From a virus (lineage: Duplodnaviria; Heunggongvirae; Uroviricota; Caudoviricetes): a DNA stretch of 14,071 bases. The stretch covers positions 1 through 14,071 of IMG/VR virus record IMGVR_UViG_2711768037_000016; one strand, written 5' to 3'. The position numbers and the translations under genes were made by a program. Positions 1 to 14,071 of this stretch are shown here, piece by piece; position 1 is the first letter of the stretch; every line of letters begins with the position of its first letter. Below the pieces are notes generated by a model. The model searched no databases and was not told the origin of the DNA. It was given only the letters and a program-made list of their open reading frames with translations.

Positions 1-381
1 TTACTTTTTTAGCAGCCAGTCGTCCATCTCCAGTCTTACCCCCAGCACAGACAAACATCCGTCAATAAACCCTTCGGCTATCTGCATCTCAATTCGTATT
101 GCTTTTTCGCTTTTCTTTCTCGTCCTGGCTATCTGTCTTTTTGATATTCGCAACAAATAATGAGCAATGAGAAGCGAATACTCCTCAGGTTTTTTCTGCT
201 TCAGACGAGCAAGACAGTTTTCAATGATAAGTCCGTCATCATCGCAGCAGGCCGGACGTGGTTTAGTGGCAGATGGTAAAAGTCCTTTGAATCCGGCAGC
301 GATCGGAGAATAGTCCACCCCGGTGTTACTACTTGCCGCCCATGCCCCCCAGCGTTCAAGAACCATCTGAATATCACGCAT
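1..381 (-). CDS. Antitermination protein Q-like (late-gene antiterminator)
   Basis: From the first in-frame ATG the protein begins MRDIQMVLERWGAWAA..., which I recall as the N-terminus of lambdoid Q antiterminators of the QuuD/phage-82 type. It has a Cys-rich central region (PACCDDD...ENCLARL). SD GGAGA lies 6 nt upstream of the ATG at 381; the track start at 396 is TTG. Stop is at 1-3. Confidence 0.8.
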   Translation of the reverse strand: MRDIQMVLERWGAWAASSNTGVDYSPIAAGFKGLLPSATKPRPACCDDDGLIIENCLARLKQKKPEEYSLLIAHYLLRISKRQIARTRKKSEKAIRIEMQIAEGFIDGCLSVLGVRLEMDDWLLKK

Positions 382-398
382 CAACTTTCTCCACAAAA

Positions 399-1394
399 TC
401 AGGACAGCACACCAATCGCCAGCGCGCGATCGATAAAACGAAATATCAGCTCCAGTTGGGAACCATACTTCTCTTCAAATGCCACGGTATCCGCATGCAG
501 TTCGTCATGGTGTTTTCTGCACAAAGGCAACACAAAAAGGTCATGCGCTTTTGTACCCATTCCACCCTGACCATGGCCAATCAGGTGATGCGGATCGTCG
601 GCTGGCTTACCACAACATGCACACGGCTGCGTCTTAACCCAGCGCGTGTACTTTTCATTAACCCAGCGACGACGTTTGGGGCGTAACATAAAAGACTCCG
701 GCGACTCCGGATCCACTTTCAGCGCCAGCACCTTTTTCGCTTTATCCCGGATGATGCTGGTGGCGAGAACCGAAGGCACAAGGTCACTTTCCCGGGTAAC
801 AGACGGCACAACAGTCTTCGGTAATCTCAGTGCCTTACGGGCTGCACTTTCCGGTAAGGCATCCGCCAGGTCATTACGAACCAGCCACCAGCACAGTTCC
901 GGCATTGTCACAACGTGACTGTCATCAAAACCGAGATCACGACGGACTACGGACAACACCCAGCGGGCACAGTTATCCGTTGCCATTGATTCCAGACGTT
1001 CCGTGAACTGATCGCGAAGCAGGTTATCGCAGTGCCAGCACAGACGGATTGCGCCTGGCGCGTGTCGCATTGTGGTCATGTTCTCGCTGTGCCATCCGGA
1101 ATGAGGCCACTGGCAGCCTTTTTCACGAAGTAACCAGCTCTCAAGGCATTCCACGCCACCAGCACGACGGATCACCGCCTCATGGCGGAACACGGCCCGA
1201 ACGGCAGGATCATCCGCCAGCGGTTGTGATGCTGCCGGAACGGCACCACTGGCAAAAGAGGAATAACGTTCCGGCTCAGGCTCCAGCAGGACACGCCCCT
1301 GCATAAACAGGGGCATCAGCTCTGAACCGGGTCTGAACAAGACGATCCCCATACGCGGGGCAATTTCAGGGGTCAGCAGTGCTCTCACGGTCAC
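399..1394 (-). CDS. DUF968-like nin-region protein with C-terminal Cys/His (HNH-like) motif
   Basis: 331-aa ORF. The C-terminal segment CACCGKPADDPHHLIGHGQGGMGTKAHDLFVLPLCRKHHDELH resembles the conserved motif of lambdoid DUF968/YdfU-type proteins (recollection, not a search). Start is uncertain: GTG at 1394, or GTG at 1388 with SD GAGG. Confidence 0.6.
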   Translation of the reverse strand: MTVRALLTPEIAPRMGIVLFRPGSELMPLFMQGRVLLEPEPERYSSFASGAVPAASQPLADDPAVRAVFRHEAVIRRAGGVECLESWLLREKGCQWPHSGWHSENMTTMRHAPGAIRLCWHCDNLLRDQFTERLESMATDNCARWVLSVVRRDLGFDDSHVVTMPELCWWLVRNDLADALPESAARKALRLPKTVVPSVTRESDLVPSVLATSIIRDKAKKVLALKVDPESPESFMLRPKRRRWVNEKYTRWVKTQPCACCGKPADDPHHLIGHGQGGMGTKAHDLFVLPLCRKHHDELHADTVAFEEKYGSQLELIFRFIDRALAIGVLS

Positions 1395-1440
1395 CTCAGC
1401 GAACGGTATTGCATGAACGCAGGAGAAAAAAATTCAGCCA

Positions 1441-1698
1441 TCACGCAGTAAACTCCTTCACCAGCGTTTCAAACAGGCTTACCTGGCCTTCCAGTTCCGC
1501 CACGCAATCCACCAGCTCATCCACCGCCTTTTGTGTGCGGTGTTTTGCCTGCAGCAGATCACGAAGCGCCGGAGTAAGCTGCTTGCGGAGCGTATCTTTT
1601 GCCACGCTCGTTTTTTCCATCTGTTCAGCACAACGAAGCATCTCCTGCGCCTGCCGACGAAGTTGTTCCGGTGAAACAGTGGTTGTTCTGTTGTTCAA
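1441..1698 (-). CDS. Small hypothetical protein, predicted coiled-coil
   Basis: 85-aa ORF with a TTG start overlapping the helicase stop (TTGA); GGAG lies 8 nt upstream. Heptad-like charged sequence. Real but with uncertain start, or possibly shorter from an internal ATG. Confidence 0.4.
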   Translation of the reverse strand: MNNRTTTVSPEQLRRQAQEMLRCAEQMEKTSVAKDTLRKQLTPALRDLLQAKHRTQKAVDELVDCVAELEGQVSLFETLVKEFTA

Positions 1699-3095
1699 AA
1701 TAAACGCTCCGTTTTACTACCCGACATGCGGTTATTGCTGTATCTGCGCGGATTGCCCGGCGTCATGGGAGTGGAAAGAATCCGGGCACTCTCCTGGTCC
1801 ACAGGCAGAAAATGCCCGTTATGAAAACGCCGGTAAATGGTACCCAGCGTGCCATTACGCTGTTTCGTGATGTTGATTTCTGCTATGCCTCTCGCCTGTG
1901 TCTCCGGGTTGTACACCTCATCCCTGTAAAGCATCAGAATGATGTCTGCATCCGCCTCTATTTCCCCTGAGTTTTTCAGGTCCGAGTTCATGGGGCGTTT
2001 ATTGGGTCTGGATTCCACGCCACGGGAGAGCTGGCTCAGAGCAATCAGCGGAAAACCGCCGGATTTTGCCAGGCTTTTAAGTCCCTTTGAGATTTCCCCC
2101 ACAGCAAGGTCGTGACGCCCCGTGCTGCGGGTTTTAATCAGGCCGAGGTAATCGACCACCACCAGCGCCGTTTCCGGGTGTTTCATCCGGTGGTGCCTCG
2201 TGGTTGCACATATCTCATCAATGGTCAGGTTTGCCTGGTCCACCATCCAGATATTACGCCCCGTCATTCGTCCCACGCCCTGTGAGAAACGCGCCCAGTC
2301 TTCATCTTCAAAACGGGCAACAGACTTAAGACGGGATACCGGCATTCCCCCGGCAGCAGACACCATACGTTCACCAATCTGAATGTTCGCCATCTCCATG
2401 GTGAACAGAAGCACGCCATGCCCCTGCTCAGTCACCTTGTCGATGATATCCAGCGCAAGTTCGGTTTTCCCCATCGAAGGACGGGCCGCAATGAATACCA
2501 GGTCGCCTGGCTCCATACCGCCCGTTTTTGCGTCCAGTTCATCAATACCGGTCATCAGCGCCCTGGATTTCTCCAGTCCCTGATTGCGGCATTCAACACG
2601 GTCGACCACTTCCGGAAGGACATCATCAATGTGAACCGGCTGAATGACGCCCTTTCCGGTCGACAGTGAGGCCATCATGTTCTGCGCATCCTTCAGGGCA
2701 TCCTCGGCTGCTTCACAGGTATACGCATCACGTAAATTCTGTAATGCTTCAGTCAGTGTTTTTTCTGCATCGCGCAGTGCGGCATTGCGCCGCAACGCTG
2801 CGACATAGTGCTCCAGTGAAGACTTCACCCAGGTTTTGCGTCCGGTGTCGGTAATCACCGGGGCAAGTTCCGGCATCTCATTGCACAGTAGCACGGGATC
2901 AATGACGCCGGATACGCGGGCCTGTCTGCAAATTCCCGCGTAAATATCCCGGTACTGTCGTGCAGAAAAAACGTCCGCCGACAATGTGGCCAGAATATCC
3001 ATCACTTCCGGATCAGCCCCACGCAGAAAAAACGCGCCAATGACAGCGCCTTCCAGGTCATCGTTACGCCATGCCGGGGTGTTCTGGCTGGTCAT
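1695..3095 (-). CDS. Replicative DNA helicase, DnaB family (phage P-region helicase)
   Basis: 466 aa. Walker A-like AARPSMGKTELAL, a DnaB-type C-terminal RecA-like domain (LVVVDYLGLI, SQLSRGVESR) and a DnaB-like N-terminal domain. ATG at 3095 has a strong SD GGAGGTG 7 nt upstream and overlaps the upstream stop (ATGA). Confidence 0.9.
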   Translation of the reverse strand: MTSQNTPAWRNDDLEGAVIGAFFLRGADPEVMDILATLSADVFSARQYRDIYAGICRQARVSGVIDPVLLCNEMPELAPVITDTGRKTWVKSSLEHYVAALRRNAALRDAEKTLTEALQNLRDAYTCEAAEDALKDAQNMMASLSTGKGVIQPVHIDDVLPEVVDRVECRNQGLEKSRALMTGIDELDAKTGGMEPGDLVFIAARPSMGKTELALDIIDKVTEQGHGVLLFTMEMANIQIGERMVSAAGGMPVSRLKSVARFEDEDWARFSQGVGRMTGRNIWMVDQANLTIDEICATTRHHRMKHPETALVVVDYLGLIKTRSTGRHDLAVGEISKGLKSLAKSGGFPLIALSQLSRGVESRPNKRPMNSDLKNSGEIEADADIILMLYRDEVYNPETQARGIAEINITKQRNGTLGTIYRRFHNGHFLPVDQESARILSTPMTPGNPRRYSNNRMSGSKTERLF

Positions 3096-3970
3096 GCTGC
3101 AACACCTCCGATACGAGAACGGTAGCTGGGCCAGTTAAACGACAACCAGTTGCGCCCGCCATTGGTGATCCTGTCGGCAATCCGGGGACTGATGAACGCC
3201 CACAATTCTTCCGGTGAAAGGTTGCTGATCAAGATAGTTGGCAAAATACCCTCATACCGGGCATTGATAATTTCCTGCAAAATGGCCATTTCAGCCGCAC
3301 TGCCAAACTGAACGCCGACTTCGTCGATGATCAGCAAATCCAGTGACGCATAATGCTCAATGACGTCATCCGCTGTTTTTTCACTGTCATTCCGCCAGCA
3401 GTTTTTTACAGCACGGGTAAGGCGCATCACGTCGGTGATCTCCACACTGGCCAGATAGTTACGGATGATGTGTTTTGCCATTGATACCGCCAGATGATTT
3501 TTCCCGGTACCGCAACTGCCGGTCATAACAAGACTGGTACCGTTCTCCAGCATATCTGGCCAGTTCTCCGCATAGCGGCGACAGGCCGCAAGATTTCTGG
3601 CTGCGTCAGGATTAACCTCCAGATAATTATCAAACTCGCAGTCCCGAAAACGCAGAGCAATTCCGGCGTTATCAGTCAGTTCTTCCGCCTTGAGGGACGA
3701 CAGCTCCATGGTCAAATCGTTGGCCTCAGCTATCAAGCAGTCAGGGCAGCATGAAATTTTTTCTCTGTCCTCGCCATTACGATCGCTCCACACCAGAATA
3801 TGTGTGTGGTACTCGCCATGTTTTTCGCAACACCCACGCCCTTCACGCATCCAGCAGGAACGATAAGGCCATGGTTTTTCGCCCTTCTGAGCAAATGCAA
3901 TCTCTGCCCGTAACTCATCCATCCGCGCCTGTAGTCTTGTTTGTTGTTCACGCAGGTTAAACGTCATCAT
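3092..3970 (-). CDS. DnaC/IstB-like AAA+ helicase loader with N-terminal Cys/His-rich segment
   Basis: Walker A GSCGTGKNHLA and Walker B LLIIDEVG. N-terminal C...CC..H..H.H...CCPDC cluster. The first ATG, at 3970, has SD GAGGTG 6 nt upstream; the track start at 3979 is GTG. Confidence 0.85.
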   Translation of the reverse strand: MMTFNLREQQTRLQARMDELRAEIAFAQKGEKPWPYRSCWMREGRGCCEKHGEYHTHILVWSDRNGEDREKISCCPDCLIAEANDLTMELSSLKAEELTDNAGIALRFRDCEFDNYLEVNPDAARNLAACRRYAENWPDMLENGTSLVMTGSCGTGKNHLAVSMAKHIIRNYLASVEITDVMRLTRAVKNCWRNDSEKTADDVIEHYASLDLLIIDEVGVQFGSAAEMAILQEIINARYEGILPTILISNLSPEELWAFISPRIADRITNGGRNWLSFNWPSYRSRIGGVAA

Positions 3971-3980
3971 CGCTGTCACC

Positions 3981-4907
3981 TCAGAATGTCAATTTGTCAC
4001 TGGATTTACCGAATTTGTCAGACATGGCTCCCAGGCCAGCCAGGACATCGACCTGTCGCTGTCGCCCACCTCCGGGAGCTGCTGGCTGTTGCCAGAAATC
4101 TTCGAAGTGACGATCGGGTCCAAAGAACGTCGACGCCTGCTTCACGAACTGGGTGCCGGTATTTCCTGAGACACGCACCCAGGCAGCATAGCGTTTCACA
4201 CCGTTGAGCATGGTTTCTGGTGTCACACCTTCCCTGATTCGGGCTTTCCAGGCTTTGAAGGCTGCTGACTTGGAATTACCACCAGCACGTTTGGGATATT
4301 CCTGCCAGGCCTGTTCAAATTCCGGTGAATATTCCTGTCTGGCAGAACGCGCTGGTGCAGACGCGTCAGCGGATGCGCCAATATCTTGCGGTTCATGTTT
4401 TGAATTTACTGGTGGTTCATGTTTTAAACCTTGTGGATCTGGGGTCAGATTCTGAAGGGTCAAACGCGTATTTTTGCCAGAATCTGAAGGGTCAAACACA
4501 CCTGAACATACAGATTCTGACGGTTCAGATTTTGAAGGTTCAGAATCTGAAGGGTCACGTAATCCTGAAAGTCTGCGCTGCTGTTTCAGTTCTGCAACCT
4601 TATCCCGCTCTGTTCTGGCAAGCAGCTCAAGCCGATCAGCATTCAGATGATAAAGATTGGACGTATTACGGTTACCTTTGCGGCGTGACTGACGCGTCAG
4701 CCAGCCATCAGCCTCCAGTTCGGAGATTGCCGTTCTGACTGTACTTTCTCCCAACCCAAGCTGTCGGCATATGGTTTCAACACCTGGGTAGCACACCCCG
4801 TCATCATTCGAATAATCCGCCAGGCGCGCCATAATCATCAGTTTTGCACCTTTGATGCCATATGCTGCACATGCATCCCAGACATTACCTAGGATTTTGC
4901 TACTCAT
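3981..4907 (-). CDS. Phage replication initiator (lambda O-like role): N-terminal winged-HTH, repetitive linker, C-terminal domain
   Basis: 308 aa. The N-terminus looks HTH-like (GESTVRTAISELEADGWLTR). A low-complexity Ser/Pro/Asp/Glu linker is encoded by the iteron array. Strong SD GGGAGG lies 6 nt upstream of the ATG at 4907. It sits immediately upstream of the loader and helicase. Confidence 0.7.
   Translation of the reverse strand: MSSKILGNVWDACAAYGIKGAKLMIMARLADYSNDDGVCYPGVETICRQLGLGESTVRTAISELEADGWLTRQSRRKGNRNTSNLYHLNADRLELLARTERDKVAELKQQRRLSGLRDPSDSEPSKSEPSESVCSGVFDPSDSGKNTRLTLQNLTPDPQGLKHEPPVNSKHEPQDIGASADASAPARSARQEYSPEFEQAWQEYPKRAGGNSKSAAFKAWKARIREGVTPETMLNGVKRYAAWVRVSGNTGTQFVKQASTFFGPDRHFEDFWQQPAAPGGGRQRQVDVLAGLGAMSDKFGKSSDKLTF
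4390..4558. repeat. Iteron array inside the initiator gene (candidate phage replication origin)
   Basis: Direct repeats read off the sequence: GGTTCATGTTTT(G/A)AA at 4390-4404 and 4414-4428; CAGATTCTGAAGGGTCAAAC at 4446-4465; CAGAATCTGAAGGGTCAAAC at 4478-4497; and three overlapping ~15-bp-period copies at 4511-4528, 4526-4543 and 4541-4558. Confidence 0.6.
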
Positions 4908-5128
4908 ACGGCACCTCCCAGACGCTTAAACATTTTTCCGGACTGAAACGCCACCAGCGGATAACTCAGGGTATGAGTACGTCCCTGAACCTGGCAGACA
5001 ACCTTCTGGCTTTCTGTATTGACCAGGCAAACCCGCAGAACGTGTCCGTTGCTGGTGGTGAACCACTGCCCCACACGGGGGCAGTGGTCGTATCGGTGAT
5101 ACAGGGGATTAACGACACGGCGAATCAT
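4904..5128 (-). CDS. Hypothetical 74-aa protein (between Rha genes and initiator)
   Basis: ATG at 5128 with strong SD GGAGG 7 nt upstream. ATGA overlaps at both ends (with Rha-3 stop and initiator start). No recognisable domain. Confidence 0.55.
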   Translation of the reverse strand: MIRRVVNPLYHRYDHCPRVGQWFTTSNGHVLRVCLVNTESQKVVCQVQGRTHTLSYPLVAFQSGKMFKRLGGAV

Positions 5129-5784
5129 GGGTTTACCTCCCGTTGATTACGACGGGACACGGAGTGACCCTGGACGGTTTCAACCTCATGGAGTGCGTCA
5201 ATACAGCTCTCGTAGTACCGCATGGTGCGCAGACTTAACCCAAGCTGTAGCATCATCAGACCATCACGGGTGATGTAATAACCACGCACTGAATCGCCAT
5301 AGGCGCGATAAGTGCCGGGAATAAAGTTGCGGGTGAGAAATTCGCGTGAACAGTTGAGATATTCGATTCGATCGACGATGTTCTTATGCATGCGCTTAAA
5401 GTGACAGGCGACATACAGGGAGAAAATAACGGCCTTGCCGTTGACGACTTCGATTTTCAGGTATGGGGAAGTTGGGTCTGTAGCCATGATGGCAGCCTCC
5501 GTATGCAATGGATAACTTCCACCACCGGAAACGCCAATTTCGCTGGTGGTGAACTGAGCAGGGTTGGCGTAACCGGCGCATACGGAAACCGGCGCACCTT
5601 TCGGTGCCCCCACCCAGCCCACCATAATTTGGGTATAGCTGAGTTGTAGCAACAAAAAAGACGCTAACGCGCCAATTGTCGCCGTATGCAATTCTAGGAC
5701 GCCAATCCCGGCACCCGTTTTATAAGGTGCCTGAACAGTGTAACGTCCCGGAATGGCAGAATCAATATTCAGGTAGCGGATCAT
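5125..5784 (-). CDS. Rha-domain phage regulatory protein with ~100-aa N-terminal domain of unknown function (Rha-3)
   Basis: 219 aa. The Rha-like segment GKAVIFSLYVACHFKRMHKNIVDRIEYL...YYITRDGLMMLQLG lies in the C-terminal half. ATG at 5784 has strong SD AAGGAGG 7 nt upstream. The N-terminal domain is paralogous to that of the adjacent gene. Confidence 0.7.
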   Translation of the reverse strand: MIRYLNIDSAIPGRYTVQAPYKTGAGIGVLELHTATIGALASFLLLQLSYTQIMVGWVGAPKGAPVSVCAGYANPAQFTTSEIGVSGGGSYPLHTEAAIMATDPTSPYLKIEVVNGKAVIFSLYVACHFKRMHKNIVDRIEYLNCSREFLTRNFIPGTYRAYGDSVRGYYITRDGLMMLQLGLSLRTMRYYESCIDALHEVETVQGHSVSRRNQREVNP

Positions 5785-6806
5785 GGACGCACCTCCTTGT
5801 CAGAACCATTCAGCCTGGAATCAACAAGTGCAGCACCAAAAACAGCATCACCAACACGGTCGTACAGTTTGCTGGCCAGCGGAGATTCAACAGCCTTAAG
5901 CATTGGATAAAGCTGGCTTGTCCAGATTTGATGGATTTCACGCAAATGCAGGTATACGCCTCTGGCGTTTCGTGCGACAGCTGACATATCAGACGCATCG
6001 GCACCTGATAAACTCTTCTCCATCAGGTTAAAGGCGTTGATGTATGCCTCTTTGAACCTGGCTGCACGTTTACCAGTGAAGCCCATAGCAAGAAACGCAA
6101 AGCCGTCGCGGGTTATTTGATAGCAAGGAAGTTTGCGGCCTGTGCAATCGGTGTAATCACTCACCGAAAAATTGCGGGCACAAAACTCTGGAGAACAATC
6201 CAAAATGCGGATCTTTTTCAGAACATCGTCATGACGTTTAGAGAAGAAGTCAGCAACAGCCAAAGAAGATGTAACAGCCTGACCATCAACGATGGCAATT
6301 TCAGGTTGAGAGAGGGTTGGGAGAGTAGTCATAGTGACAGCCCCGGTAGTCAGTTTTTTAGAAAACTCACCACATGGGACGCCAATCACAGAGGTGGTGA
6401 GACGTACAGGGTTGGCGTTACCGGAGACTACCGAACCCGGCCCGACCGAAGTCGGCCCTGTACGCCCCACCATAATTTGGGCGTAGTAATGCTCATGACA
6501 CGAAAAAACCGCATGAGCGCGGTTATGCTCAGTAATCAATTTCAGGACGCCAATCCCGGCACCCGCTTTATAAGGTGCCAGAACAGTGTAACGTCCCGGA
6601 ATTGCAGAATCAATATGCTGGTGGCGCTTCACACTCAACAAAATCACGACGAAACAACCACAGCGGGCTGAAGCATTCATGCGGATAACCATCACGCAGG
6701 TAAATAACCCGCTGTGTTTCAGGCTCCCAGCGTATAACGTGGACGCGACGCCCCCTTCCATCACGGAACCAGCGATTGAGTACTTGCATGTGTTACCTGT
6801 GAGCAT
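5781..6806 (-). CDS. Rha-domain phage regulatory protein, longer paralogue with N- and C-terminal extensions (Rha-2)
   Basis: 341-aa ORF. Rha-like core GQAVTSSLAVADFFSKRHDDVLKKIRIL...YQITRDGFAFLAMGFTGKRAARFKEAYINAF. It shares the motifs IDSAIPGRYTV..APYK.GAGIGVL and QIMVG with Rha-3. ATG at 6806 has a weak SD (AGGGG); the true start is uncertain. Confidence 0.6.
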   Translation of the reverse strand: MLTGNTCKYSIAGSVMEGGVASTLYAGSLKHSGLFTCVMVIRMNASARCGCFVVILLSVKRHQHIDSAIPGRYTVLAPYKAGAGIGVLKLITEHNRAHAVFSCHEHYYAQIMVGRTGPTSVGPGSVVSGNANPVRLTTSVIGVPCGEFSKKLTTGAVTMTTLPTLSQPEIAIVDGQAVTSSLAVADFFSKRHDDVLKKIRILDCSPEFCARNFSVSDYTDCTGRKLPCYQITRDGFAFLAMGFTGKRAARFKEAYINAFNLMEKSLSGADASDMSAVARNARGVYLHLREIHQIWTSQLYPMLKAVESPLASKLYDRVGDAVFGAALVDSRLNGSDKEVRP

Positions 6807-6808
6807 AA

Positions 6809-7516
6809 TTACCCCTGCCAGCCCAGCGCCTGGAACAACCCCATTTTCGGGTGATACCAGCGTGCACCTCGTGGCTCTGCTTCACTCATCATGCGATGAA
6901 AAGCAGCCATGAAAGGTTCTACTGCAACAATCGCGCGACGCGACAACAATCCATCCGGCGTCATGAACTCATGGGTGTCGGTAGGGATCTGATATGCGTT
7001 CACCAGATTGCGGCATTTCGCATCTGACATACCCGTTTTCGCCACCAGCTGACGGTAACCTGCATAACCATAGCGTATGGTGCCTCTTTTGATTTTCTCG
7101 ACGGTTTCAGTAACGTAGGTGACTTTCTCTTCCACCTGCTCAAGACGTCTTTGTTGGCGAACAGCTTCAAGCGCCATTGCAGCAACCATTTCAATCTGGC
7201 TCATTGGTTTGCGGATTTGTTCTTCCAGTTCGCGCCAGCGGTCTACCAGGCGGGCGGTGAATTCAGGGCAAAGCTGTGCGACAACAATGATGCTGTCGCG
7301 CTTGCCTCGTTCACCTTCGAAAAGATAATGCTTACTTTTTTGAGTTAAACCTAACCCATTGATATTTTCAGAAATCCCCATTGGGGGAAGCTGAATAATC
7401 CCTCGTTGAGCAAGGCGCTCAATGGATTGTTTCACTTTGTCATGGCGGCTGCCCACCAGCTCTGCGATCTCAACGCTGGTCATGGATGCTTTATCGGTAA
7501 AAATTGCGGTATTCAT
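6809..7516 (-). CDS. Phage regulatory protein Rha (canonical N-terminal Rha domain) (Rha-1)
   Basis: From the ATG at 7516 (SD AAGGAG 7 nt upstream) the protein starts MNTAIFTDKASMTSVEIAELVGSRHDKVKQSIERL, a typical Rha N-terminus. The track start at 7552 is probably too far upstream. Confidence 0.8.
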   Translation of the reverse strand: MNTAIFTDKASMTSVEIAELVGSRHDKVKQSIERLAQRGIIQLPPMGISENINGLGLTQKSKHYLFEGERGKRDSIIVVAQLCPEFTARLVDRWRELEEQIRKPMSQIEMVAAMALEAVRQQRRLEQVEEKVTYVTETVEKIKRGTIRYGYAGYRQLVAKTGMSDAKCRNLVNAYQIPTDTHEFMTPDGLLSRRAIVAVEPFMAAFHRMMSEAEPRGARWYHPKMGLFQALGWQG

Positions 7517-7545
7517 CTGATTGCTCCTTGAGGATGACATTTCAG

Positions 7546-7576
7546 AACTCACGCCAAAACGTATGCATCGTGAGTT
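7546..7576 (-). other. Imperfect stem-loop in the leader between the cro-like gene and Rha-1
   Basis: AACTCACG (7546-7553) pairs with CGTGAGTT (7569-7576), an 8-bp stem around a 15-nt loop containing the palindrome ATGCAT. No U-tract follows on the transcribed strand. Confidence 0.3.
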
Positions 7577-7597
7577 ACTGCTCGTGACAGTCAGTCT

Positions 7598-12769: not shown

Positions 12770-14071
12770 ATGAGTAACGCATCATACCCGACAGGCGTTG
12801 AAAACCATGGAGGATCACTCCGTATATGGTTTCACTATAATGGCAAACGTGTCAGAGAAAACCTCGGTGTTCCTGACACCGCCAAAAACCGGAAGATCGC
12901 TGGTGAGCTTCGCACTTCTGTTTGTTTTGCAATCAGAATGGGGAGTTTCGACTACGCCGCGCAGTTCCCTAATTCCCCTAACCTGAAACACTTTGGTCTG
13001 GGAAAAAGAGAGATAACCGTTAAGGCACTTTCGGAAAAATGGTTGGACCTTAAGAAAATTGAGATTTGTGCGAATGCACTTAACCGTTACCAGTCAGTAA
13101 TTAAAAACATGTTACCAATGTTAGGTGAAAAAAAATTGGTTTCATCCATAACAAAAGAGGATTTACTTTTCGTAAGGAGAGATTTGTTGACCGGTTACCA
13201 AAAGCTTTCTAATGGAAAGACTTCTTCCATAAAAGGGCGCTCAGTGGTCACGGTAAACTACTATATGACAACCATAGCTGGAATGTTTCAATTTGCAACA
13301 GATAATGGTTATACCTCAGGAAACCCATTTAACGGTCTGGCTCCCTTAAAAAAGTCCAAGGTAAAACCAGATCCTCTCACCCGTGACGAATTTATTCGTT
13401 TTATTGAGGCCTGCCGTCATCAACAAACAAAAAACCTGTGGATTCTCGCTGTATACACGGGTATTCGTCACGGGGAGTTGGTATCGCTGGCATGGGAAGA
13501 TATAGACCTTAAAGCAAGGACTATAACCATCCGTAGAAATTATACAAAACTTGGCGAATTCACTCCACCAAAAACCGATGCTGGCACCGGAAGGACAATT
13601 CATCTGGTTCAACCAGCTATTGATGCTCTTAAAAGCCAGGCGGAAATGACCATGCTTGGAAAGCAACATTCTGTAGAGGTAAAGCAGAGGGAATATGGGA
13701 GAACAGCTGTGCATAAATGTACTTTTGTTTTTAGCCCTCAGGTAATAAAACAGCAGCAGTTGTCTGGACCTCACTACAAAGTTGACTCCATCAGGGAGTC
13801 ATGGACAAGTATCTTAAAACGCGCAGGTCTGAGACACAGAAAATCGTACCAATCCAGGCATACTTATGCATGCTGGTCACTTGCCGCTGGAGCTAATCCT
13901 AGTTTTATCGCAAGCCAGATGGGCCACACAAACGCACAAATGGTATTCAATGTTTACGGAGCATGGATGAAAGACAACAATCACGAACAGATAGAACTCC
14001 TTAACAAAAGACTATCTGAAAGTGTCCCATGTATGCCCCATAAGAAAGTGGGGGAAAATAAAAACTTGTAA
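12770..14071 (+). CDS. int: Tyrosine recombinase (phage integrase) with N-terminal arm-binding domain, Rac/IntR-like
   Basis: 433 aa. N-terminus GVENHGGSLRIWFHYNGKRVRENLG (DUF3596-type arm-binding domain). Catalytic motifs RHGELVSLAWEDIDL, SRHTYACWSLAAGANPSFIASQMGH and VYGAWM (Tyr). SD GGAGG. Stop TAA at 14069-14071 is the window end. Confidence 0.9.
   Translation: MSNASYPTGVENHGGSLRIWFHYNGKRVRENLGVPDTAKNRKIAGELRTSVCFAIRMGSFDYAAQFPNSPNLKHFGLGKREITVKALSEKWLDLKKIEICANALNRYQSVIKNMLPMLGEKKLVSSITKEDLLFVRRDLLTGYQKLSNGKTSSIKGRSVVTVNYYMTTIAGMFQFATDNGYTSGNPFNGLAPLKKSKVKPDPLTRDEFIRFIEACRHQQTKNLWILAVYTGIRHGELVSLAWEDIDLKARTITIRRNYTKLGEFTPPKTDAGTGRTIHLVQPAIDALKSQAEMTMLGKQHSVEVKQREYGRTAVHKCTFVFSPQVIKQQQLSGPHYKVDSIRESWTSILKRAGLRHRKSYQSRHTYACWSLAAGANPSFIASQMGHTNAQMVFNVYGAWMKDNNHEQIELLNKRLSESVPCMPHKKVGENKNL

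Follow-up and report, generated by a model that had tools for sequence, protein, structure and literature searches.

In phage lambda, the replication origin (ori) lies inside the initiator gene O, where iterons at about codons 116–147 are followed by a less stable DNA segment, and related lambdoid origins are those of phi80, 82, 21 and P22 (gene 18). The iteron number varies among such phages, with four in lambda and six in the Shiga toxin (Stx) phages 933W and 'P27' (PMC7466680). Here we describe a candidate origin within the replication initiator gene of a Caudoviricetes prophage, analyzed in a stretch of 14,071 nucleotides (IMG/VR record IMGVR_UViG_2711768037_000016, positions 1 to 14,071; in the following called the window). 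The gene (3981–4907, minus strand) is an open reading frame (ORF) of 308 amino acids that encloses the candidate origin. It shares 92% nucleotide identity with L17 of phiP27, and the window is part of an E. coli prophage of the phiP27 type; the module of the window is present with 100% identity in a prophage of E. coli strain MFDS1006657.

From the comparisons reported below, we consider it likely that this phiP27-type prophage replicates from an origin formed by the segment 4384–4557, which lies in the part of the gene encoding a predicted disordered linker. A lambda-style plan of iterons plus a less stable flank is very probably realized here inside an initiator gene that is not of the lambda type.

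Anatomy of the repeat array and its flank

Allowing at most one mismatch, CAGAWTCTGAAGG matches the plus strand at 4446, 4478, 4511, 4526 and 4541, and the array spans 4446–4553. The copies at 4511, 4526 and 4541 are in exact 15-bp register, reported by Tandem Repeats Finder as a 15-bp array of 3.1 copies (4511–4557). The core TCAGAWTCTGA is an 11-bp palindrome (TCAGA-W-TCTGA), extended to 13 bp as TTCAGAWTCTGAA in the tandem copies. In the direction of transcription, three units with a period of 15 bp come first (4550 to 4510), namely iteron 1 (core TCAGAATCTGA, 4540–4550), iteron 2 (TCAGATTTTGA, 4525–4535, one mismatch) and iteron 3 (ACAGATTCTGA, 4510–4520, one mismatch), which make up the tandem block 4510–4557. 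Two dispersed units follow 33 and 32 bp further on: iteron 4 (CCAGAATCTGA, 4477–4487, one mismatch), invariant in eight close relatives, and iteron 5 (TCAGATTCTGA, 4445–4455; family consensus TTTTGACCCGTCAGAATCTGGCGGGGATCC), which belongs to the most conserved DNA block of the family and is translated as LQNL, in a frame unlike that of the other four. A GATC site and a segment of 35% GC come last. Taking at least three dyad-symmetric direct repeats inside the initiator ORF as the mark of a lambda-type origin, we find five such units at 4445–4550. The iterons correspond to codons 117–154 of the initiator, and iterons and flank together to codons 117–175; the encoded peptide reads RDPSDSEPSKSEPSESV...FDPSDSG...LTLQNLTPDPQGLKHEPPVNSKHEPQ.

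Another repeat, GGTTCATGTTTTRAA, occurs exactly at 4390–4404 and 4414–4428, 24 bp apart, and a relative of it with two mismatches at 4522–4536 is one of the 15-bp units. Both exact copies, together with the GATC at 4436–4439, lie in the candidate unwinding region 4384–4440 (35% GC over 4380–4439). Judged by 40-mers, no DNA of the three replication genes is less stable than 4380–4439. The family retains this flank as DNA, in the form GATCCGTCAGTAAATTCAAAAC, and in phiP27 it is a 24-bp tandem array. The least stable and most A+T-rich DNA of the window as a whole lies within 7860–11070, comprising the cI/cro intergenic region (7866–7967) and the segments 8659–8810 and 10685–11074; the latter two, downstream of cI, form a low-GC region that probably carries foreign accessory genes.

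The repeats exceed chance expectation by far. For CAGAWTCTGAAGG, the five matches compare with 0.04 expected in the 14,071-base window, a count of five was reached in none of 200 shuffles, and no further match with at most one mismatch exists on either strand of the window. The GGTTCATGTTTTRAA family has three copies against 0.16 expected, and three were reached in 0 of 200 shuffles. A scan of the window found no multi-copy local direct-repeat families besides these two. Likewise, the five core matches of the complete phiP27 genome (42.6 kb; 0.75 expected) are all confined to 106 bp inside L17, and two of the three tandem arrays of that genome, with the top two scores, are located in the L17 array region. 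In the RefSeq record of phiP27 (NC_003356), att and cos sites are marked but an origin is not, and L17 is labelled 'unknown'.

Other origin-associated or regulatory signals were scarce around the array. No DnaA-box-like sites were found near it, the sole perfect TTATCCACA box of the window being at 8164, inside the cI-like gene 7988–8677, and the interval 4300–4700 yielded neither promoter-like or terminator-like sites nor Rfam families. GC skew was excluded as evidence because the window is too short and the skew follows transcription.

The encoded protein is a phage replication initiator by domain content as well as by operon context, and both place it among the HTH_36 / PHROG 270 initiators. 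Residues 17–70 match the winged helix Pfam HTH_36 (PF13730; E = 2.8e-12, above the cut-off), and nearly the full length (residues 2–307) matches PHROG 270, 'replication initiation protein' (E = 2.5e-80). The N-terminal winged-helix domain, presumed to bind the iterons, comprises approximately residues 1–96 (4620–4907, minus strand), with matches to Pfam HTH_36, GntR and PaaX winged helix-turn-helix (wHTH) families. The C-terminal domain, presumed to contact loader or helicase, comprises approximately residues 176–308 (3981–4383, minus strand), and these last 133 residues match PHROG 1701 ('DnaD-like helicase loader') and PHROG 26426 ('replication protein').

In an AlphaFold2 (AF2) model, residues 3–88 form the winged helix (helices plus a beta-hairpin wing) with a predicted local distance difference test (pLDDT) score of about 70–84, followed by a long helix at residues 90–115, and a small helical C-domain is seen at residues 195–253. 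Residues 118–189 are predicted to be disordered (pLDDT <50) and correspond to 4341–4556 of the window, covering array and flank. Searching the PDB by Foldseek returned only generic dimeric MarR-like wHTH folds and no match at E ≤ 0.001, and a sequence search for relatives with a solved structure found none. Because only generic winged-helix matches turned up, the protein cannot be tied specifically to the folds of RepA, DnaD or other initiators.

The first-pass annotation of this DNA, made from the sequence alone, had described five units of about 15–20 bp at 4446–4558, the last three in 15-bp register, with two further repeat copies adjoining them; the motif search reproduces these positions, and the adjoining copies are the two exact occurrences of GGTTCATGTTTTRAA. 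It had also placed the array inside an initiator gene, in agreement with the HTH_36 and PHROG 270 matches of the ORF 3981–4907 and with the loader and helicase genes that follow it. Its further proposal, that the array is the ori of the prophage, gains support from this context, the lambda-like layout, conservation in the family and co-inheritance with the N-terminal domain (both set out below), while the firing of the origin is something that we infer.

Conservation as DNA and inheritance with the N-terminal domain

We compared 80 loci encoding relatives of the N-terminal domain (55–84% identity) from approximately 40 Enterobacterales genera, 73 of which have full-length genes. With at most one mismatch, the core is present in two to six copies in most genes, always at about gene nucleotides 300–430, and is almost absent from the 5-kb flanks. 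The relaxed core TCA[AG]A[AT]TCTGA yielded 341 units in the 73 genes (median five per gene; at least three in 71 of them), located at gene nucleotides 270–480, where they are 555 times as dense as in the 5-kb flanks. Core positions are 94–100% conserved in this family, and the positions between the cores are variable. Correlating the position matrix with its own reverse complement gave a value of 0.87, and this dyad symmetry fits binding by a dimeric winged helix.

The serine codons of the array are fixed to an extent not seen elsewhere in the same genes. To define units by peptide alone, the pattern S[KDENQ]S[DE] was used (n = 199). Of these units, 95% have TCA for the first serine and 91% have TCT for the second, and none uses AGC or AGT, compared with 11% TCA, 9% TCT and 51% AGY among the serines of the N-terminal domain. 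This bias persists in 28 representatives with less than 80% nucleotide identity (Fisher P ~1e-39, a value that overstates independence because the compared loci are phylogenetically related), among which the synonymous codon identity of the N-terminal domain at conserved degenerate residues is 0.40. Conservation of third codon positions is 0.69–0.91 in the array versus 0.43–0.61 in the N-terminal domain, and in the stretch 4457–4428 third positions match first and second positions at 0.91 each. Moreover, the DNA of iteron 5 is retained although it is translated as LQNL here and as SES in other clades, the longer peptides being LTLQNLTPDP here and F[HD]P[SP]ESGGDPS in most other clades. Recent recombination was considered as a cause of the low divergence of the array and ruled out: spacers vary freely and cores are 94–100% conserved, so the array region is not simply young.

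Taken together, the codon, third-position, frame and spacer-versus-core results show that the repeats are selected as DNA rather than as peptide, and they effectively exclude an explanation by the peptide alone. The DNA constraint of the array is what shapes the disordered linker of the initiator, as the first-pass annotation had suggested in proposing that iterons impose a low-complexity linker; the codon test and the predicted disorder of residues 118–189 over the array both bear this out. That annotation had also named an absence of the repeats from homologous initiator genes as evidence that would count against an origin, but they are found at the same place in 71 of the 73 homologous genes across the approximately 40 genera.

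The tandem block (4510–4557) differs in copy number between close relatives. Among E. coli prophages it has two units in ETEC1732, three in the window, four in KH16-043 and EC12, and six in L3_E36, and both dispersed iterons are invariant among the close E. coli relatives. In the wider collection, protein lengths range from 298 to 328 residues in steps of five residues, with a single tandem unit in one 298-residue relative and eight in one 328-residue relative. The module was found in 57 of 5,426 complete E. coli genomes.

Two E. coli strains, ECDA1023 and ECGI0523, carry an ORF (locus positions 2501–3868) whose first ~90 residues match the N-terminal domain of the initiator with 57% identity. 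This ORF continues, to a total of 455 amino acids, into sequence resembling a terminase large subunit and lacks the iterons; it may be a deletion-fusion in a decayed prophage. One database relative is likewise named 'Phage terminase, large subunit'.

A second line of evidence comes from module exchange at the junction 4383/4384. The segment 3981–4383, encoding the C-terminal domain, is common, at 99.8% identity, to Stx phages with a different N-terminal domain and different repeats. We identified 22 phage records matching only this segment or part of it, 11 of them at 99.5–99.8% and the others at 77–96%, and all 22 diverge completely from 4384 on. In the Stx2a-converting phage Stx2_EH2201 (LC567829.1), the same C-terminal domain is joined to an unrelated N-terminal half with its own repeats beside the junction. 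This alternative N-terminal module has no Pfam match and matches PHROG 9773, 'replication initiation O-like'. Its candidate origin (locus positions 3411–3585) consists of three 12-bp units TAYTCTCTGNAG beside the junction and three 23-bp units TTTCCCNNNTCCGCGG..., with additional GGTTTCCC-type units and inverted GTTTCCC/GGGAAAC units in the module. The C-terminal domain of the window initiator is also common to the Eru7 representative Stx2_14040. Conversely, N-terminal domains and iterons of the window type also occur with C-terminal domains of other kinds, for example Phg_2220_C in Kosakonia and a different one in SfIV and Providencia.

More remote HTH_36 initiators (30–41% identity) have about three repeats each of a different dyad directly after the winged helix, namely GGGGTGGGGCAGGAGCTGCCC in Stx2a_F403, CCTAGTGACAAAATGTCACCA in Vibrio phage D62 and CCTGTGCC... 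in ZF40. These relationships indicate that the array is inherited with the N-terminal and not with the C-terminal domain. Co-inheritance of this kind, with repeats specific to each N-terminal domain, is the pattern known for lambdoid ori specificities; iterons that travel with the N-terminal domain and an exchangeable C-terminal domain, as expected of a lambda-type origin, are both found here.

We also searched for an autonomous replicon based on this module. The search returned small fragments, prophages that reside in large replicons and a single record from Klebsiella quasipneumoniae, pKqq_SB1124_5 (NZ_CP084811.1), and nothing else. The latter, circular and 44 kb long, was deposited under the label 'non-mobilizable plasmid' but represents the genome of a lambdoid phage. 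In the stretch examined, an HTH_36 initiator of the present family with a Phg_2220_C domain is its only evident replication gene, and no phage helicase or loader is present. The outcome of this search is suggestive at most.

Replication operon and neighboring genes

The initiator is followed on the minus strand by a gene for a DnaC/IstB-like AAA+ helicase loader (3092–3979; Pfam IstB_IS21, 3.3e-14), which also matches NCBIfam DnaC with 9.4e-37, under the curated cut-off, and by a gene for a DnaB-type replicative helicase (1695–3095; Pfam DnaB_C, 3.2e-74, plus a DnaB N-domain). Upstream of the initiator lie three Rha or Ash/Rha genes assigned by Pfam (5125–7552, minus strand) and a cro-like gene (7598–7855), with a divergent cI-like repressor gene at 7988–8677. 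The resulting order, cI, cro-like, Rha/Ash, initiator, DnaC-like loader and DnaB helicase, is identical in phiP27. With cI and cro upstream and loader and helicase downstream, we assign these genes to the early-right replication operon of a lambdoid-style prophage.

Between the initiator and the Rha/Ash genes, an ORF of 74 amino acids (4904–5128, minus strand) overlaps the initiator start by four bases and matches PHROG 1153, a family of unknown function (E = 3.7e-42); in other family members, a small DUF4222 gene occupies this position. The C4 antisense RNA (RF01695, 81–82 bits) is present in two tandem copies, each preceded by an isrK RNA (RF01394). Rfam places the two pairs at 5542–5629 and 5654–5730 and at 6390–6477 and 6502–6578, all on the minus strand, within the 5′ parts of the Ash/Rha antirepressor-like genes 5125–5784 and 5781–6806. 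The arrangement resembles a C4/ant immunity cassette of the P1/P7 type that has been duplicated and sits between cro and the replication genes.

Interpretation and comparison with known systems

Binding, unwinding, helicase recruitment and origin firing are steps that we infer from this arrangement. Dimers of the N-terminal winged helix would bind the five dyad iterons, three of them in 15-bp tandem and two spaced by 32–33 bp. The resulting initiator–iteron nucleoprotein complex would then destabilize the adjoining, less stable segment 4384–4440, and the C-terminal domain of the initiator would recruit the phage DnaC-like loader and the DnaB-type helicase encoded directly downstream.

Several points weigh against an origin at this site. 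Repeats that bind an initiator can also serve autoregulation or copy control, instead of or besides initiation. The variation of the tandem block, two to six units in close relatives and down to one in a single protein, means that some units are dispensable or tunable. The flank is just 65% A+T, and when the 40-mers of the window are ranked by instability it comes at the 4.5th percentile; it is not the window's extreme because the immunity region and the low-GC accessory region are far less stable. Confidence in the AF2 model is low overall (mean pLDDT 55), the relatedness of the compared loci reduces the weight of the codon statistics as stated above, and the literature searched contains no experiment on binding or origin activity for this module. 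The main competing explanation draws on the same observations, taking the repeats as binding sites of the N-terminal domain that mainly serve autorepression, copy control by titration or a handcuffing-like mechanism, or a transcription roadblock, with replication starting elsewhere, either beyond the window or at a repeat-free site. Co-inheritance and DNA-level selection indeed argue for binding and not specifically for initiation, the flank is only moderately A+T-rich, and a polymorphic copy number is expected of a tunable regulatory array. Against this, neither the window nor the complete phiP27 genome contains a second repeat cluster, and the most conserved block in the family consists of the last iteron and the adjacent GATC/A+T segment, which fits an origin core. 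An intragenic site downstream of the promoter region is also poorly placed for an operator, with no promoter-like site nearby, and the equivalent array in lambda, the closest analog in layout, is an origin (PMC7466680 for Stx phages). We therefore regard a mainly regulatory role as distinctly unlikely.

Could the repeats instead be a by-product of replication slippage in a flexible Ser/Pro/acidic linker, with selection acting on the peptide only? The linker is of low complexity and predicted to be disordered, and 15-bp units that expand and contract by multiples of five codons among close relatives are typical of slippage. However, TCA and TCT are fixed (95% and 91%) and AGY never occurs despite near-saturated synonymous sites (0.40), conservation at third positions equals that at first and second ones, one copy is kept in a different frame, and the unit is palindromic, which is meaningless for a peptide. 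The repeats that come with unrelated N-terminal domains, furthermore, have quite different translations. This possibility has already been largely refuted by the codon and frame tests, and we consider it highly improbable. The same low probability is given to a host protein or another phage DNA-binding protein, such as the upstream Rha/Ash proteins, being the factor that targets the repeats in place of the initiator. Several DNA-binding proteins are encoded nearby, but across the 73 loci the array stays with the N-terminal domain while upstream genes and C-terminal domains differ, replacement of the N-terminal domain brings replacement of the repeats, and SfIV and the Klebsiella element, with 61% identity in the N-terminal domain, have the same iterons without Rha/Ash and phage helicase genes.

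An origin at 4384–4557 would provide a concrete candidate for phiP27, which is an Stx2e phage, as well as for a group of prophages that is widespread in Enterobacterales. The reference records of these phages carry no origin annotation and call the initiator either 'unknown' or 'helix-turn-helix protein'. Because post-induction replication sets the Shiga toxin gene dosage, the origin and its variable iteron number would be useful handles for Eru modules. The array also exemplifies a DNA segment with two purposes, measurable as codon fixing and as indifference to the reading frame. A more far-reaching reading joins these observations into one origin specificity shared across prophages, with cross-firing between phages or satellites and copy number acting as a replication dial. 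It is based on the near-invariant TCARAWTCTGA and core block in at least 40 genera of Enterobacterales despite divergence of the N-terminal domain to 55–65% identity and several swaps of the C-terminal domain; we offer it tentatively and think it rather unlikely. If it were true, one phage or satellite could fire, titrate or hijack the origin of another that resides in the same cell or superinfects it, and the 15-bp polymorphism (one to eight tandem units) would be a fast-evolving dial for post-induction replication and, where Stx phages are concerned, for the dosage of the toxin gene.

Non-lambda replication modules of Stx phages have been catalogued by protein identity in the Eru papers (Llarena et al. 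2021, PMC8044961; PMC8951638), which list HTH_36 proteins in Eru5, 6, 8, 11 and 13 and mention iterons or origins not once. Nor is an origin discussed in the SfIV genome paper. In the literature on phiP27, L17, Eru and SfIV we found no description of this origin, although an early mention in the original phiP27 or SfV genome papers is still possible, and the motif strings turned up in the literature only as unrelated primers. The Stx phage 'P27' of the Wegrzyn laboratory has a lambda-like O protein and lambda-type iterons (PMC7466680). Its replication module differs from that of phiP27 L17 (NC_003356); the experiments of that laboratory are therefore not applicable here, and the similar names invite wrong transfer.

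Two other groups of initiators resemble the present one in part. G38P of the Bacillus phage SPP1, with oriL, and the DnaD-like 'replisome organiser' initiators of Gram-positive phages also have origin repeats inside the initiator gene, and the G38P type likewise combines an N-terminal winged helix with a C-terminal part contacting the helicase loader. Sequence similarity to SPP1 and DnaD-like proteins is marginal, with weak DnaD_N matches only in relatives of the N-terminal domain (1e-5; 26.1 bits versus a cut-off of 27), and repeat sequence and host range differ. The iteron plasmids with pPS10 RepA, F RepE or R6K pi offer a looser analogy, sharing a winged-helix initiator and a cluster of direct repeats beside an unwinding element; as in these plasmids, the iterons may also give copy control. 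Plasmid iterons are located outside the rep gene, are about 17–22 bp long and are bound by monomers. The window initiator does not belong to these families, having no Rep_3 or RepA-type Pfam match and dyad-symmetric iterons inside the ORF.

The closest parallel is lambda ori. Both arrays lie inside the initiator ORF at nearly equal codons (about 116–147 in lambda, 117–154 here), and both consist of several direct repeats with an internal dyad, with a segment of lower stability coming next as transcription proceeds. As in lambda, each N-terminal domain appears to have iterons of its own, whereas C-terminal domains can be exchanged and would be matched to the partner that loads the helicase; as in lambda-type phages, the iteron number differs between relatives. 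The lambda flank is more A+T-rich than the 65% found here. Unlike lambda O, the initiator has an HTH_36 and no Pfam Phage_rep_O match and falls outside the lambda O/ori family. Its iterons are dyads of 11–13 bp in a 15-bp period, compared with ~19 bp in lambda, and are unrelated in sequence to ATCCCTCAAAACGAGGGA, and its partners are a DnaC-like AAA+ loader and a phage DnaB instead of lambda P and host DnaB. The candidate fits the functional kind of the lambda origin, and the finding leaves the thinking on how phage origins work unchanged; what it adds is that the lambda solution, an origin in the linker between DNA-binding and partner-binding domains, probably recurs with an unrelated initiator.

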